In this document: one piece after another, positions 56,101-64,000 of the stretch
Layout of the letters: every line of letters begins with the position of its first letter
Numbering within the stretch: position 1 is the first letter of the stretch
From: Amphiscolops sp. MND2022
Lineage: Eukaryota
NCBI GenBank assembly: GCA_964187785.1
Contig: OZ076409.1
Location: forward strand, 45,510,001-45,574,000
Length of the DNA stretch: 64,000 nucleotides
Direction: 5' to 3'
Program-made: the position numbers and the translations under genes
The notes under the pieces: model-generated
Databases searched by the model: none
What the model was told of the DNA's origin: nothing
What the model saw: only the letters and a program-made list of their open reading frames with translations

Positions 56101-57433
56101 CCCACTAGAGTATTTTTATTTGAATAAGGACTGAAATTAAAGAAAAAAGGTCCAAACTCTGCAATGACAACAAAAATCGATGAAGATACGTCTGGAATAA
56201 ATGGCTAACATCAATGCTTACAGTACAATTAGGCCTTGTTTTACCAAATCAAAGTGATTTTAGGTGTTATTCCACCACTATAAAGATATTATCAGAATAA
56301 GGACTTTAATTAAAGAAAAGAGGTCCAAACACTGGAATAACGGCTAAAATCAATCAGTACAGTATAGTTTGGCCGTCGTTCACCAAAATAAAGTAACTTT
56401 AGGTGTTATTCCATCAGTGAAGTGATTTTTCCAAAACAAGGACTGAAAATTAGAAAGGACCAAACTCTAGAATAACGGCTAAACTCAATGCGTGCAGTAT
56501 AAGTTGGCCTCGGTTTACCAAATTAAAGTAACTTTGGGTGTTATTCCTCCACTGAAGTGATTTTTCCAAAAAAGGACTAATATCTAAAAAAAGGTCCAAA
56601 CACCGCAATAACAACTAAAATTGATGAGGATACGTCTAAATCCTGGAATAATGGCTAACATCAGAGCTTACAGTACAATTAGGCCTTGTTTGTCTAAATC
56701 AAAGTGATTTTCGGTGTTTTTCTACCACCATAACATATTATAATCAGAATAAGTGCAATAATTAAAGAAAAAAGGTCCAAACACTGGAATAACGGCTAAA
56801 ATCAATCATTACAGTATAATTTGGCCGTGGTTCACCAAAATAAAGTAATTTTAGGTGTTATTCCACCGGTGAAGTGATTTTTCCAAAACAAGGACTGAAA
56901 CTTAAGAAAAAAGATCCAAACTCTGCAATGACAACAAAAATCGATGATGATACGTCTAAACACTGGAATAATGGCTAACATCAATGCTTACAGTACAATT
57001 AGGTCTTGCTTTACCAAATCAAAATGATTTTAGATGTTATTCCACCACTATATTGATTTTATCAGAATAAGGACTATAATTAAAGAAAAAAGGTCCAAAC
57101 ACTGGAATAACGGCAAAAATCAATGCCTACAGTATAATTGGGCCTTGGTTTACCAAACTAAAGTGATTTTGGGTGTTATTCCACCACTGAAGTGATTTTG
57201 CTAAAACAAGGAAAAACAATTTAAGAAAAAAAAGGTCCAAACCCTGGAATAACAACTAAAGTCGATGAAGTTACGACTAAACAGTTTTTCTATACTATCT
57301 TTTATGTTTTTTTTTTCATTTTAGATTGTATGAACTCCGTTGCGATCACTAAGTTAAATATAATCTTTAATGTTTTCATTTTGGTGTGGAGAAGAAAGAA
57401 ATGATCATATTTGCGAAAATGTTTTTGTTTCAG

Positions 57434-57632
57434 ATTTAGACTAGTATGGAAATTTCAGAAGATGAAACCGGAAGCAGAAAATACGGTTAGATGTGAAAAC
57501 ATTAGACCGAAAGATTCAGCTATCCTAGAATTATTTCAAAAAATATTCCGTAGTGCTTACGTTAGATTTCGTGTTTTTAAAATTATCTACAAGTAATTTG
57601 GCTGAACTGTAACTAGAATTAAACTAAATAAA
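57434..57632 (+). other. Possible terminal exon of a spliced gene truncated at the satellite edge
   Basis: A pyrimidine-rich acceptor TTTTTGTTTCAG ends at 57433, followed by an open frame (FRLVWKFQKMKPEAENTVRCENIRPKDSAILELFQKIF...) to a stop at 57596 and AATAAA at 57627-57632. No homology recognised. Confidence 0.3.
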
Positions 57633-57690
57633 GTCAAGTTTACCAGTACTTGTAGTAGCCTCTTCCATGTCCTCTCCCGAAGCCTGGTAT

Positions 57691-58345
57691 TCAAGAGCAG
57701 CATAAGAAACTGCCACCGGGAGCGGGTCGCGACAGAATCCCTCTCGCACGAAGCGCTTGCACAGCGTGGCAGTGGCGTATTGCTCGGGTGATTGATACTG
57801 GCTGTTGCCTGGGTTTCATTACTCTTGTAGGGCGATGACATCGACCACGGCCAATTGTCGCATAAAATTCCCTATCTTCCAGCTCTAGTCTATACATTGC
57901 TTTCATTACTTTGAGTGAGGGCTCGTCCAGGTCATTCAGCTCGTTTTCTTCGTCGCTAACTCACTTTCAGCTGAGAGAATGATAGAAATTTTTCTTGGTA
58001 CTGGAGCGCGCCGCAGAGGAGGGTGTTGCCGTGGCGTCTCTGGTTCTTCAAAGTAGTCGTCTTCCGAGTCAGTATCCAGTTCATTCCCGATGCAAACGTG
58101 ATTTTGGCATTTTGTTTTTTGATAGGTGTATTTCCGATCTTCTTCGGTGATCAGCCGGATTCGAAGGTAGAAGCGGAGAAGGTTGACGAATCTAGGTCGG
58201 CTTCGCTGCCTCTCCAAACTTCTACGGGGGAGTCGCTTAGGTTTAGCGTTCGGACCATTTTGACTGGGATGGTCTTTATAGCCGTGCTATATCTTTGATT
58301 TTCTTCATCAGACGAAATGTCTATGACTAAGGCGTAATTGTCCAT
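57691..58345 (-). pseudogene. Frameshifted acidic, probably disordered protein with an N-terminal SIM-like motif; function unknown
   Basis: Three successive frames link through two frameshifts: MDNYALVIDISSDEENQRY...STFES / RLITEEDRKY...DTDSEDDYFEEPETPRQHPPLRRAP...IILSAES / VSDEENELNDLDEPSLKVMKAMYRLELEDREFYATIGRGR... Real ATG start and consistent composition throughout. Confidence 0.5.
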
Positions 58346-58399
58346 TTCAGTTCAGGTTAAAACTGTTTTCCTTTTCTTTCCTTTAAATTGTAGAGGTTT

Positions 58400-58640
58400 C
58401 AAGATAATTTAGTCAAGCTGTTCGCAAGTGGAATTGGACGACAAATGAACGTTTCAGTTTCCTTTTTTTCCCGTGATTTTACTGACTTTTTATTGGCTGT
58501 CATCCCTTCTTCGTTCCGGTCCGCCTTGACAGCTTGAAACCGTTCTATTCCCGTTTGAGCTGTGATTGGCCAAAAACGGGAAAAAATTGATTTAATCTTC
58601 ATTTTCTTCAGCTACGTTGTTATGACGTCATCAGCTTCTC
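58400..58640. promoter_or_regulatory. Candidate bidirectional RNA Pol II promoter
   Basis: Lies between divergent ATGs (58345 on -, 58936 on +). ATTGG (reverse CCAAT) at 58433, 58492 and 58565; TTCCGGT (ETS core) at 58514-58520; palindromic ATGACGTCAT (CRE) at 58622-58631. Confidence 0.5.
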
Positions 58641-60088
58641 TTCGGAGGAGTTACGTCCTTGCGACGTTTCTTTGAAATGACTTCCCTTTAAATCTTTCCT
58701 TCAAAACTTTTTGATGACTTCTGATTCATCCGTAGGGTTTTTGGAAACGTTTTGTTCTGTCAATGCCATAATAGGCTTTGGATGAAGTTGAAGAGTTTAT
58801 AATTTTTAAAATACGCAAGGATAACGTTGTTAATTTTCTTTAATTACTGTTTTTGTTGTAAATTTCTTGGTTTTCTTCTTATTTTCTTTCTTCTTTTAGA
58901 TTCTTTGACGATTTCATTGTTCTCTGTTTGTGGAGATGGAAAACGAAGAGTCCGAACGTCCTGCCACCGTAGCCACTGGCTTTGTGAGTGGTAATGAAAC
59001 TGGTTACAATTATTCCGAAGATGACGTGGTGCATTCGGGAGGAGTGATTGGGATGTCCACTTCAGGTTGGTAAAATTTGTCCGACTTCCATGGGTATTTG
59101 GACTGTTTTTTTTGTGATCAGCCTGATAGTCTTACCCGATCTTCTGACGCTTCTGAATCCGGATCTTGATTTTCAGTACCTCAATCTGGTAGTTCTTTCG
59201 CTGTTCCCGGAATGGTTACGGATATTTCTACTGCTGTGTTGCCACCGGCTGTTACTTGGCTGTCAATTGGTTCTCCACCAGGATTTGGAGCTTCTTCCGA
59301 AAAGGCTACAAACCTTGAGACTCCTGAGCTTTTCCTTCCTATTAAGGATATCGTTGGATCTAGTTCTCGGACCCATTCTCGAGATTGAGTCTCATGGAGG
59401 TGAGACGGATTCCCCCTCCGAAGAAGGAACGGGTTTATGTGGTATTCGATGTAGGTTTGTGCAACTAAAGGAATGAATGGAGAGTGTGATGTTGTTGTTT
59501 AGGGTCCCCCGCACGTCGGGGTCGAACTCAGTTCGTGAGTTTTGCAACGCCTCCCAAACGTGTTAAGGGAAACGCACTGCCTCCTCGCCCACCATTGACT
59601 CCTGCCCCACGAGCGAGGATTAGTTAGTATTATATTGTTGTATTGGTAAAATTGTTTGGGGTGAACAATCGTTTGGGAAGTGATTAAGTGGGTGCTATGT
59701 TTATAGGTTATGACGATGACTTGCTAGGGCTGGGTCTGAGTCCGAGGAATTTGATGCGCCTGAGTCAGCAGATTGTCGAAGAGGTTGATACGTGGACTTC
59801 GCGGACTATTCGAAATTTTTTGTTTTTTTGTTTATCATTGTTGTGGCACCTTTGTTGTGTGTTGATTTCGGAGTTGTTTGTATCTTTTGTTTCGTTGATA
59901 TTATGTAGTTTGTATGTTGTTGTAGGCTTCAGTGAATTGACTGTGAGGGTGGCTGAGCATGTTGGATCTCAACCAAGGATGAAAAATACAGCCGCACGAA
60001 TATGTTGCATAGACGTATGTTGGATTCGCACCCTGCATATCGCGACTTTGTGAGTGGTTCAAAGACCGGAGCTGGGACGCACTTTCAT

Positions 60089-60169
60089 TGTCTTGTGTGT
60101 AGGCGCGACGTGGCCATGAGAGCGCATGGATCGCGAGAATTTGCTTGTCATTTTCAATCTGACGCTCAT
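60089..60169 (+). other. C2H2-type zinc finger (BED/TTF/U1-like spacing)
   Basis: FHCLVCRRDVAMRAHGSREFACHFQSDAHW within ORF 60002-60514. Confidence 0.75.
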
Positions 60170-60505
60170 TGGCTCAAAGATGTCGTGTATCGCGTTCACA
60201 TGGGTATGCCGGTGCTGAATAGGCTGATGGAGCCCACGGATTTGAGTGAGAAGCAACTCGCCGAATACCGTGCGCAGCCTTTCGTGGAACTGGGCGAGGG
60301 GTATTCTTTTCCCGAGGAGCTGCTTCCGAAACACTGTCGTGTGGGTTCGAGGATTCCATTTATGACGTTCGTGGACTGTCTATGTGATCTGTTACGTTGT
60401 GGAGGAGACTTCGATCTAGTTCGGCAACTCTGGACCCATTTCTGTCTTTCGTTGGACAAACAGAAGGCTGAATTTTATTTGAGTTGGAGTCGGTCTGAGA
60501 GTGTG

Positions 60506-60650
60506 GTAAGTTAGGAATTCCCTTTTTTCTCTTTGTCTTTTTTACTCTCATTCCCCTCTTCCTCTTTTTTCCTCTTTTGTTTTTTTTTCGTTGGGGTTCC
60601 AATCTGGGGCGTTGATAGTTGCCTGTAATCGTTTTTGCTTGTTGTTTCAG
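60506..60650 (+). other. Spliceosomal GT-AG intron (145 bp)
   Basis: GTG|GTAAGT donor, T-rich interior and TTGTTGTTTCAG acceptor. Phase 0 on both sides joins ORFs 60002 and 60591 in frame. Confidence 0.8.
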
Positions 60651-61311
60651 TCATTCTTTTGCCAAGGCTTTGCTCCTCGAGTGGTCCGTTTGGTAATTAA
60701 TGCAGGAAGACCTCTTCAGTTCAAAGATTACATTACGTTCAAAGTTTACAGTGTGCAATTTGAGAAGGTCGATTCGTGGAACACTGCTAGGTTCTTTTCT
60801 GGGCAACTCAAAAACGTTTGTGTAGAGAGTGAGTTACTCGATGAGCCCGTCCCGACTGCGGAATTAGTGCCTTTGTCGCGACTTATTCACTGCTTGGAGT
60901 CGAAACAGATGCCACTTGCCATTCGTGGGTCTAGTCCTAGTTTTTTACGAGTGCTGGGCGATAATCGTACTGATGATCGCCATTTCATAGTATATCAGGA
61001 ATTTACTGACGAGGTCTTCCTGCAGTGTGTTTGGCAGGCCCATGAGGGCATATTCGGGATGGTGGAAGTTACTACCATCGTAGAATATGTTGTTCATTGT
61101 CTCAGAAGTGCAGTGTATGAGGAATGGACTGAAAATAAGATCGTGCTGCGCCGATGTCTCCGAAAGGGGTCCGTGGACTTCAATGAGTATCGTGAGTTGC
61201 TGACGGACTCAATTGAACTTTGACCATTAGTTCGTCCCAACATCCGTTGTGCTGTGAATCCAGAAGCTCGTGGCAAATCAGCTAGTGTTAGTATAATATT
61301 CGAAATATGTG

Positions 61312-61511
61312 NNNNNNNNNNNNNNNNNNNNNNNNNNNNNNNNNNNNNNNNNNNNNNNNNNNNNNNNNNNNNNNNNNNNNNNNNNNNNNNNNNNNNNNNN
61401 NNNNNNNNNNNNNNNNNNNNNNNNNNNNNNNNNNNNNNNNNNNNNNNNNNNNNNNNNNNNNNNNNNNNNNNNNNNNNNNNNNNNNNNNNNNNNNNNNNNN
61501 NNNNNNNNNNN
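61312..61511. other. Assembly gap (exactly 200 N)
   Basis: A round-number run of N, typical of a scaffold join of unknown true size. Confidence 0.97.
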
Positions 61512-63162
61512 TTCCAGATGTTGGGGTCAGATTGGCATTTAATTGCTGCTAAAAAGATCGTGCAACGCTTTGGCTTGCTGCGGTTTGTCCTCGATACTTG
61601 TGAGTATGATGTTTTGATTTTTCTGATTGTTTCCGTTTGGTTCGATTTGTGTCCGTAGTATTTGAATTGTGTTTCTTTTGTGTTATCCGTCTGGTTTCTG
61701 CTTATTCTTTCTTGGTAGTTTTGATGTTGTTTTCGATCACTTAAATTTCGTGAAGATGCGTCAGCAGCGGAGTGATTACGGATTTCATGGGTACAATGAG
61801 ATGTGCCACTTTTTCTACTGTCTGTTGTTGAAAACTCGCGTACCATTGTCGTTTCCTGGCATTCATGATTGGGAGGACTACATGGATGTGCTGAAAGTTT
61901 CCGTTTATGCCTTTTCTTCAATGGATACTTTTTTGGACAACTGTGATTTCGGTCGCGAGTTACTTGCGTTGAAAACAACTGGGGCTCAGGAGTTCCGCGT
62001 ACATTGTCGTTAGTTTTTGGACCAATTGATTACAATTGTGCTAAACAGTCCTAGTGTGTCTTCGAAGATTACGAAAGGGCTCTGTAGTTCCAGTCCTGAG
62101 ATTTTGTTGGAAGGTGACGAGCATGCCGTTTTTTCATTCTTTGCTGATCTGGCGAAAGTGCTGGTTACATGTGGGGTGTTATCTTCTGACGAGTCGAATG
62201 CTGCTGTTACTCAGTTCAGTAGTTATGTTGTGAAGAAGTGGAGATTGCACGATAGATCAGATATCAATGCTAGTGAGATTCCAGATATTGTTCAGTACTT
62301 GCGATTTTAGTTTTACTGGTCGTCCAGAAGTTTGTCGCGTATTGAAATTGTGTTGCCTAGTCGTTGGTTTGCCTCGCGTTACCTACCCTCCAGTGTCTTT
62401 TGATTTGAGTGGTAGTTCGTTAAGTGAAGCTGCTTCCCAGTGTTGTCTACGATTAGTACAGTCCTACGTGATGAATGCGGGATTTGAACACCAGCAGTTC
62501 TTTACTGATTTGATTCTGGATGCCGTCCGTGATGCTATTGCAGATGCTGGTTTGTTTTATGTTACTCCTGGGTTCGACGTCTGAACTATTGTGATCCTGT
62601 TGTTGAGTCCTTTATTTCCGACTACCAGAAGTTATACAGTTCGTTTTTACAGGAGCAACGTAGTTCTTCCGAAGCTTATTATGTGGGATGTAACAAAGCT
62701 AAGAGACTTGCTCGTTCCAATATTGGGGCTTCCGGATCGGAAACAGGTAGTACCATTAGTGCTACTTCCAAAAAGATGAAGGATGGAGCCTCATCGTCTC
62801 GCGGTGTTGCATCTACATCAAAACCCGTAAGCAAGAGCGAGGGGCAGTCTGGTACGCTGAAGAAACCGGAGGGTAGTAAGAAGCAAATTAAGGGTTCCAG
62901 TGAAGAAAGAGACCCTGATGTCCATCATCGTGTCAAGTGGCATAAAAACTGTTACAGGCTTTGTTGTTTCGTTTTTATGTGCTTCTTTGATAATCTTGAG
63001 TTATTTTATTGTATACTTTGTCTGTTGAGGCACATTTGTTTTCCGTCGGATTTACTTTAGATTAGACAGTTCGAAAAAATTTAACGTGGTCACTCCGGTT
63101 CGGTTTAGTGTGCTGGTTTTTTTCAGTTAGTTCTGAGTTTGACGTGAGTCTTCCGTAGTACC

Positions 63163-64000
63163 TCAGTCGAGCATTCTGAAGACAGGATTCACCTTAGGTT
63201 TTGGGTTAGGTCTCAAGTTGTATCTCCCACGTTTCTAGGATTGTATCCAACAACTGTAGGAGGTAGTTCGGGAGTTTTGGGAGAGTTTGTATAAGCGGTG
63301 GAGTCAAATTGTAGGGATTGTCACTGACATCCAGATTGAATGACGTAACCTTATCGGGGGACGTTTTATCACCATCAGAATTTTCAACTGTGGTTGTTTT
63401 GACCACTTCATTTCCTGTTGTAGTTGCGTTATCTTCTGTCTTGTCTGTGGTTTCTGTAATTGTAGCTTCTTCCGACGACTTTTTCGTAGGTGTTCCGATT
63501 AGAACTTCTCCGAATTCGATTTCCCAAGCTTGCGCGTCCCAATCACTGTGGATTGTTTTAACCTCTGGATCTGGAAGGTAATCTTCCCCTGTGACTGTTA
63601 CGTCAGGTATTCGCTGATTGGATGCGTATAGCCTTAGGCGAATTCTATGGAGGGTTTGTGTGTATCTTGTACCCGTTCTGCGTACGACGTAGTTGTTATT
63701 TGAGAAAACTTTGACTACTATGTAAAGTCTAGTCTAAGTGCAATCTTTGAATGCAAATTTCATTGACTGGTTGTCAGCTTTCGGATTAAGGACGTAGCAG
63801 CAGTCGTTGATTTTGAGTCGCGTAGCAGTCGCTTTCTTATCGTAATACTGTTTGTATTTGAGATATGACCGCATTAGATTGTCTTTGGCGGCTTGGTGTA
63901 TTTTGCGAATTGTTTCTGCAGTTCATCCGTTAGGTCTTCGTTGTTGTCTTTTTCCATTCAGGCTTTAATCCGAGTTTGATGTCCAGAATATTGTACGGGA
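63163..64000 (-). mobile_element. Ty3/Gypsy LTR retrotransposon pol 3' end (integrase C-terminal GPY/F region), degenerate; continues off the right edge
   Basis: Manual - strand translation with frameshifts: PYNILDIKLGLKP...DELQKQ...IHQAAKDNLMRSYLKYKQYYDKKATATRLKINDCCYVLNP...KFAFKDCT*TRLYIVVKVFSNNNYVVRRTGTRYTQTLHRIRLRLY...acidic/Thr-rich linker...RYNLRPNPKP. This follows the K..YD / L..GD.V / (W.GPY).V / H..RL pattern of Gypsy integrases. Confidence 0.88.

Follow-up and report, generated by a model that had tools for sequence, protein, structure and literature searches.

Extra antisense open reading frames (ORFs) between pol and the 3' long terminal repeat (LTR) have been described in plant Ty3/Gypsy retrotransposons, and their function and origin have been stated as open (PMC7264820). 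The DNA analyzed here is a 64,000-nucleotide stretch of contig OZ076409.1 of Amphiscolops sp. MND2022 (positions 45,510,001 to 45,574,000; hereafter the window) in a 1.07-Gb assembly, and the analyzed feature is its last 6.7 kb (57284-64000). This feature represents the 3' part of one decayed copy of a 16.5-kb Gypsy family that is abundant and was active recently. In this family, a cassette of two accessory genes, located between integrase and the 3' LTR, is copied together with the element. One of the two genes is antisense to pol and is predicted to be interrupted by several introns. Although antisense extra ORFs are already known in plant Gypsy elements, the multi-intron form appears to be a new and well-supported variant within the open-access literature, in which no LTR element was found to be reported with an antisense gene that has several introns or derives from hAT.

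The plant antisense ORFs (maize Grande gene23, rice RIRE2, and Retand with Transposase_28/PF04195) are alike in position and orientation, and they are described as having their own internal promoter, family-wide conservation, and a probably nuclear function, to which the present gene can be likened (PMC7264820; PMC11963269). The available text of PMC11963269 does not mention introns for antisense ORFs, and PMC7264820 only calls for looking for spliced antisense transcripts. Unlike these ORFs, the present gene has no PF04195 match, contains seven predicted coding introns plus a likely untranslated-region (UTR) intron, is predicted to encode about 1,036 residues that include a zinc finger, and is accompanied by a sense ORF bearing a motif similar to a SUMO-interacting motif (SIM). 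HBZ of HTLV-1 is a spliced antisense accessory gene. HBZ is an antisense nuclear regulator of its own element, similar to the role proposed here for the cargo (PMC11963269); however, it is short, encodes a basic leucine zipper protein, and is driven by the 3' LTR, whereas the present gene has a predicted internal promoter and an unrelated protein.

Three further comparisons are relevant. The Plant Mobile Domain of Gypsy elements (PMD-A), a relative of MAIL1/MAIN, is described as a domain common to Gypsy elements, DNA transposons, and silencing pathways, and an anti-silencing role was proposed for PMD capture by Mutator-like elements (PMC5418596). In that case the domain moved from host genes to Mutator-like elements, whereas here a possibly transposase-like gene resides in Gypsy and no PMD match was obtained. 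Bdelloid LTR elements with extra ORFs, orchid Gypsy elements with a 2-ODD demethylase domain, and planarian Burro are likewise large Gypsy-type elements with captured accessory domains, but their cargoes are recognizable enzymes or in-frame domains, and the available portions of these sources describe no antisense multi-intron gene (PMC5408684, PMC9289625, PMC6431247). Finally, hAT transposases (Hermes) and ZBED derivatives likely share the domain order of the present gene, with a BED-like finger and a weak structural echo of Hermes 265-347; in contrast to them, the present gene has no conserved DDE triad and no CxxH motif, and at all loci seen it moves only within the LTR element, with neither terminal inverted repeats (TIRs) nor 8-bp target-site duplications (TSDs) of its own.

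The assignment to Gypsy is based on both the window copy and its younger relatives. Part of 57284-58000 is repeated 12.8 kb further on in the same contig, and 336 bp of 57284-57735 are 87% identical to the 5' LTR of the window element, which ends at L021:6553; the rest of pol, gag, a PBS (primer-binding site), and the 5' LTR lie in this neighboring stretch (L021:1-6553). A first-pass annotation, made from the letters of the window, had stated that no LTR was visible, yet the innermost 452 bp of the 3' LTR occupy 57284-57735, and what it had marked as a possible plus-strand terminal exon belongs to this LTR sequence as well. The two LTRs of the window element differ by a Kimura two-parameter distance of 0.137 over 335 bp, compared with 0-0.020 in 11 other pairs. 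About 1.9 kb was lost from its 3' LTR on the satellite side and roughly 0.9-1.1 kb from within its 5' LTR, and with both LTRs damaged the target duplication is unreadable. Young relatives are 16.5 kb long, with LTRs of 2.1-2.35 kb that have TGT...ACA ends and are flanked by 5-bp TSDs. In L058/L059, gag and pol are open frames with protease, reverse transcriptase (RT), RNase H, and integrase in Gypsy order; the PBS (TGGTGACAGGAG) is common to all three cargo-bearing clades (A, to which the window belongs, B, and C), and a purine tract precedes the 3' LTR. Paired TG...CA LTRs, 5-bp TSDs (in relatives), gag-pol order, PBS, and polypurine tract (PPT) are all features of Ty3/Gypsy elements. It was also observed that the gag frame starts several hundred bases within the LTR in all three clades (e.g., L059:4084-5622; L021:5096-5450), so that the gag N-terminus is present in both LTRs, and that a weak dUTPase-like match (E 0.07-0.13) lies between protease and RT (L059:3-4265, aa 444-523).

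The cassette recurs as part of the element. Integrase lies beside the cargo on the opposite strand at all 25 cargo-picked clade-A loci (10 + 15), and the last coding exon of the antisense gene (exon 8) is present at all nine integrase-picked loci (L002-L010). Within the 19 first neighborhoods, exon 8 adjoins integrase on the opposite strand in every case, and the full order of acidic ORF, exons 5-6-8, and integrase was found in 17, the other two being one internal deletion and one truncated copy. In three sets of neighborhoods (at least 8 of 19, 4 of 5, and 8 of 12), the cassette lies between LTRs that are 97.4-100% identical as pairs and are flanked by 5-bp TSDs. A search with the exon-5 protein yielded at least 150 scored places (138 of 150 stop-free), and integrase is also found beside the cargo at 8/8 clade-B and 7/8 extended clade-C loci. 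No free-standing cargo copy was detected among the loci examined, which were top-scoring loci only and were not given a separate TIR scan, and no signs of an independent hAT element (own TIRs, an 8-bp TSD, copies outside Gypsy) were seen in the sampled loci. As in the aORF-3R class, most copies have an antisense ORF between pol and the 3' LTR, and it is kept by selection.

These observations agree with the proposal of the first-pass annotation that the cassette travels inside an LTR element, and the recurrence check that it suggested for the integrase/cargo junction gave the expected result. The annotation had correctly noted that no PPT or LTR immediately follows the integrase stop codon (63163-63165, - strand), and in the loci examined the findings that it regarded as contrary (a junction unique to this locus, other copies with a PPT or LTR directly after integrase, a hAT-like gene occurring on its own) did not appear. 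Two of its caveats turned out to be real features without the feared effect. The 200-N gap does exist at 61312-61511, but the copy alignment places it wholly in intron 6, the length of which is 71-120 bp in 15 of 16 other aligned copies (about 80-90 bp in close copies) and which is deleted in one; the gap is therefore harmless to the gene model, and an assembly artifact at this position was rejected. Similarly, the sense AATAAA after integrase (63005-63010, - strand) is present, but since it occurs in 10 of 12 copies checked, LTR-paired ones included, it does not prevent full-length copying. The converging stops of integrase and the antisense gene are separated by a spacer of ~210 bp, which contains TCCGGTTCGGTTT in nine of ten clade-A copies and a one-base variant of it in the tenth. 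As a separate observation, a TTCCGGT(T/C)CG motif is kept both in this spacer (63081-63106) and in the divergent promoter region (58505-58522).

The features of the window, with the basis of each assignment, are as follows.

1-57283, no strand: satellite array of ~179-bp monomers with higher-order repeats (repeat analysis)
57284-57735, - strand: 3' LTR, inner 452 bp, starting TGTCGCGAC on the - strand (match to the second LTR)
57736-57750, - strand: polypurine tract, degenerate in the window copy, GAGGAGAGGGGCCC in young copies (comparison with young copies)
57640-58345, - strand: acidic ORF, sense, intronless, frameshifted in the window copy (ORF analysis, dN/dS)
58346-58935, no strand: divergent promoter-like region and 5' UTR (13 copies aligned)
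58936-59065, + strand: predicted coding exon 1 of the antisense gene, ATG at 58936 (copy alignment)
59066-59176, + strand: predicted intron 1 (copy alignment)
59177-59432, + strand: predicted exon 2 (copy alignment)
59503-59622, + strand: predicted exon 3 (copy alignment)
59707-59817, + strand: predicted exon 4 (copy alignment)
59926-60505, + strand: predicted exon 5, zinc finger (alignment across three clades)
60651-61286, + strand: predicted exon 6, predicted alpha/beta core followed by helices (structure model, alignment)
61312-61511, no strand: 200-N assembly gap, entirely within intron 6 (copy alignment)
61518-61599, + strand: predicted exon 7, 82 bp (copy alignment)
61736-62949, + strand: predicted exon 8, predicted all-helical domain and Lys/Ser-rich tail (alignment, model)
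63081-63106, no strand: conserved spacer motif TTAACG..TCCGGTTCGGTTT (clade-A copies compared)
63163-64000, - strand: Gypsy pol, 3' end, with the C-terminus of integrase and an acidic tail (domain search)

The antisense gene is predicted to comprise eight coding exons and seven coding introns and to encode a protein of 1,036 residues with a CxxC-H-H zinc finger. When 17 copies with 54-72% identity to the window are aligned, the seven introns are seen to keep their GT donors and their pyrimidine-AG acceptors, in line with the convergent plus-strand multi-intron gene of the first-pass annotation. The eight joined exons form an uninterrupted frame of 1,036-1,038 residues in 6 of the 17 copies, which represent two subfamilies 67% identical in DNA, and all splice sites are canonical GT/AG in four of these six. 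A conserved acceptor at ~58899, upstream of the ATG at 58936, suggests a 5' UTR intron, which is likely to be an additional one. The window copy itself is broken by six frameshifting indels and two mutated splice sites (intron-4 donor and intron-7 acceptor), and the frame of exon 8 is disrupted. Exons 2-4 (59177-59817) encode a low-complexity Ser/Pro/Thr-rich N-terminus. The zinc ligands of exon 5 (C, C, H, H) are invariant across all three clades.

Genes moved by retroelements are expected to lose introns, and introns on the opposite strand are invisible to the spliceosome in genomic RNA. The predicted introns are confined to the antisense gene, as the first-pass annotation had claimed for genes antisense to pol, and gag, pol, and the acidic ORF are uninterrupted frames in young copies. 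The introns of the antisense gene would survive reverse transcription because genomic RNA carries them as their reverse complement. Sense introns are removed by splicing when an element retrotransposes, as in Ty1, where a reverse-oriented indicator gene is placed between RT and the 3' LTR (PMC5071640). An eight-exon gene carried through very many rounds of reverse transcription under selection would be a natural counterpart of this polarity trick, and the cassette family provides a setting for the study of intron gain and loss inside a retroelement.

Both the antisense gene and the acidic ORF are under purifying selection. In pairs with unsaturated synonymous sites, the ratio of nonsynonymous to synonymous substitution rates (dN/dS) is 0.15-0.19 for exon 8, 0.17-0.21 for exon 6, 0.07 for exon 5, and 0.21-0.26 for the acidic ORF, and the bootstrap intervals lie below 0.5; between subfamilies, synonymous sites have reached saturation. 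Intron 1 is more strongly conserved than any other stretch of the cassette, with a mean identity of 82% versus 46-52% in the other introns and 51-65% in the exons, and it carries an in-frame stop codon and an imperfect two-fold symmetry around TGATCA. Intron 1 may function as a site of binding or as a switch that controls splicing. A conserved RNA fold within it is unsupported, with a two-sided change in one of 17-18 predicted pairs and z-scores of -1.5 to +0.5, and Rfam returned no matches at E <= 0.5 across L058:900-9100. In addition, a mean column identity of 86% was observed for this intron over 24 diverged copies (window 59066-59176; L058:4843-4957), and its palindromes are TGATCA and GACGCGTC.

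The second cargo gene, located in sense orientation before the 3' LTR, had been recognized by the first-pass annotation as a minus-strand intronless acidic ORF, and it is continuous in intact copies (214-301 residues). Its N-terminus reads V/I-I-D-I-S-S-D-E-E (V-I-D-I-S-S-D-E-E type) in 7/7 clade-A copies and V-I-Y-I-S-S-S-E in 2/2 clade-B copies. This hydrophobic core followed by a Ser/acidic run is a putative SIM; the SIM-bearing accessory protein of the first-pass annotation is supported at the level of a conserved motif (SIM-like in 9/9 intact ORFs of two clades). Some subfamilies also have a run of basic residues in this protein, and in clade A the RG-rich C-terminus overlaps the 3' LTR by about 95 bp. 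The clade-B sense ORF was seen to retain the SIM-like start and to have a different, non-RG C-terminus. An errantivirus-like env gene was considered for the sense ORF and rejected: no transmembrane stretch was detected (hydropathy over 19 residues peaks at 0.3-0.6 in clade-A ORFs and at 1.3-1.5 in those of clade B), the product is acidic and RG-rich, and no env family match was obtained. Between the two start codons (58346-58935), two ATTGG (CCAAT) boxes, TTCCGGTCCG, and TGACGTCA are conserved in 13 aligned copies. The ATTGG boxes and TGACGTCA are as expected of a divergent promoter, and an internal divergent promoter, also proposed in the first-pass annotation, probably occupies this conserved promoter-like region.

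Clades B and C, which were found by chance in flanking DNA, extend the distribution of the cassette. Clade B has LTRs of 1.75-1.95 kb and an RT 82% identical to that of clade A; the LTRs of clade C are 0.9-1.1 kb long and its RT is 68-70% identical to that of clade A. Antisense homologues of the three clades are mutually only 17-25% identical, and occupy the same place and orientation in elements with the same PBS. LTR pairs were found in 9/12 and 5-bp TSDs in 8/12 extended clade-B/C loci, and searches with clade-B and clade-C cargoes gave 115 and at least 150 places, respectively. The RT tree has the topology ((A,B),C), in line with one ancient cargo acquisition. Intron positions vary: the stretch corresponding to clade-A exon 6 has one more intron in clades B and C, and clade C does not have the intron preceding exon 7.

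Within clade A, the cargo has diverged much more than the backbone. Among eight elements, the proportions of nonsynonymous (pN) and synonymous (pS) differences are 0.03 and 0.50 for RT, while cargo exons have a pN of 0.25-0.28 and a saturated pS, even in pairs with an RT pS of 0.13-0.25; the amino-acid divergence of the cargo is about 8-fold above that of RT. The RT and cargo trees mutually reject each other (approximately unbiased test, p < 1e-29 both ways), suggesting that cassettes have been exchanged between backbones. The acidic ORF assorts separately, as L048 and L090 are 92% identical there versus 51-58% in the antisense exons. In public data, the exon-8 profile matched 1,070 clusters of 50% identity at E <= 0.001 (556 at 1e-10), and among the best 150 exon-8 relatives, 41 fall below 40% identity to every one of the 14 genome copies compared.

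The origin of the antisense gene is a separate question. The first-pass annotation called it hAT-like, a captured DNA-transposase derivative, and descent from a hAT-type transposase is probable in our judgment, although statistical support was not obtained. A zinc finger followed by an alpha/beta core, a helical region, and a C-terminus that is also helical, together with several spaced motifs, looks by eye like a hAT pattern; the ZBED2 BED finger matches the exon-5 zinc finger weakly (E 0.73); and for the exon-6 model (pLDDT 42.5) Hermes transposase ranked 10 of 48,161 chains in the expected register (Z 3.7, rmsd 5.4, 74 aligned), residues 113-196 aligning to Hermes chain 265-347 (Foldseek E 0.68). 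The structure models are low-confidence models of single exons and gave no clear family in fold searches; that of exon 8 (pLDDT 41.1) gave nothing. Exon 6 appears RNase-H-like by eye and has no conserved acidic triad.

Further tests of the origin had negative or weak outcomes. Pfam returned no relevant family in the cargo proteins, including no zf-BED match for the zinc finger, and PDB profile searches had no match. Profile-profile comparison with ten hAT proteins of the genome, mostly Ac-like, gave scores of 17.5, 18.3, and 1.2, within shuffles; a deep exon-8 profile scored 18.0 against hAT, versus a shuffle maximum of 14.6 and 15.8 for the reversed profile, with a probability of 0.25%. The PF05699 dimerization domain had no match in 14 genome copies or 46 diverse relatives, a search that a diverged domain could escape, and PF14291 had no match anywhere, the controls included. 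Cargo profiles searched against six-frame peptides of 30, then 50, genome hAT loci reached a best E of 0.11-0.2, no homologues of exon 8 were found among longer proteins, and the exon-6 search found one family member. The zinc-finger profile had 215 matches, the 120 listed being all unnamed, without Pfam, and of one source type. No transposase cluster was found in the ESM Atlas, where recognition of the cargo was low. In exon 6 only F130 and E152 are invariant across the three clades, so the DDE triad is not conserved; 50 diverse C-terminal halves have no near-invariant acidic column, and CxxH is absent from the cargo alignments. It is a possibility of some weight, though a doubtful one, that the large gene is a captured host zinc-finger gene or belongs to a family without a described relative; the negative library and profile tests, the missing acidic residue, and the ESM Atlas result speak for it, whereas the hAT-like domain order, the ZBED2 match, and the Hermes rank speak against it. 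With neither DDE nor CxxH conserved and the zinc ligands invariant, the large protein most likely binds without catalyzing. Should a hAT origin prove true, one transposon class would have domesticated the enzyme of another.

With regard to function, we consider it moderately probable that this decayed Gypsy 3' part carries a cassette whose two proteins are putative nuclear self-regulators acting against host silencing. An internal divergent promoter would give rise to a spliced antisense mRNA for the ~1,036-residue zinc-finger protein and to a short sense mRNA, ending in the 3' LTR, for the SIM-bearing acidic protein. Both would be nuclear and shield the element from silencing; the large one, perhaps a hAT-type descendant that has lost its catalytic residues and kept DNA binding, might bind element DNA, and the small one might engage SUMO-marked silencing factors. 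The fast divergence of the cargo and the conflict between RT and cargo trees are what one would expect if an accessory module were in conflict with its host. Several points weigh against this reading: the antisense gene model rests on conservation; the hAT origin did not gain statistical support; fast divergence and exchange equally fit relaxed constraint plus template switching; and no long sense ORF precedes the 3' LTR in five clade-C copies inspected (L147, L151, L152, L154, L155), which have the antisense gene, so that not every clade requires the acidic one. A neutral passenger, that is, a dead DNA transposon inserted in one Gypsy copy and amplified passively, is scarcely credible. In its favor, nested insertions occur often and the copy in the window is itself broken. 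It is contradicted by frames that have stayed open, a dN/dS far below 1, saturation at synonymous sites, conservation of the splice sites, and the occurrence of the gene in three deep clades, and neutral nested insertion was rejected on these selection and conservation data.

Other roles for the large protein deserve attention. P elements have transposase-derived repressors and regulated intron retention, and by analogy the protein could be a self-repressor or copy-number brake that binds its own element DNA (e.g., the symmetric intron 1), with intron-1 retention as a tissue-specific switch. The conservation of intron 1 above any exon and its in-frame stop fit such a role, and convergent transcription could itself limit genomic RNA; however, copy numbers are high and activity is recent in each of the three clades that bear the cargo, and a pure brake does not predict rapid divergence and cassette exchange, which makes it an unlikely explanation. 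Even less probable is that the protein assists the integrase complex in integration targeting or nuclear import and is no silencing antagonist. The zinc finger and basic tail would suit it, and such a role has been proposed for plant antisense ORFs (PMC7264820), but integrase and RT are near-invariant while cargoes 50-60% identical exchange freely between backbones, which argues against a tight co-evolving contact, and by inspection, without a formal test, TSD sequences have no obvious target motif. The anti-silencing reading also has a bolder form, which we regard as speculative and, as a whole, somewhat improbable: long ago, a Gypsy lineage may have domesticated a whole intron-bearing DNA transposase gene, backwards and with catalysis removed, as a DNA-binding anti-silencing factor, in interchangeable cassettes (more than 1,000 clusters at 50% identity) whose introns come and go as the cassettes pass through an RNA intermediate and in which the conserved intron 1 is an expression switch. 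For the questions of antisense-ORF function and origin, the family supplies hundreds of open copies, three deep clades, and two discrete proteins.

With respect to the surroundings, base composition shifts sharply at 57284, where the satellite (higher-order units of 139, 313-318, 357, and 490-496 bp) adjoins and truncates the 3' LTR; no satellite monomer match was found past the far LTR. The genome also has several hAT transposase ORFs of 580-640 residues, which are single open frames, some in multiple identical copies (L081, L083, L110, L111, L112). Elsewhere, three near-identical elements are arranged in tandem with common LTRs, each with a duplicated integrase segment (L131-L135, G000:C9:54612001-54662000), and a clade-B element is nested in a clade-A element (L024), both with cargo genes (L025:1427-10000 with L144:1-7357).

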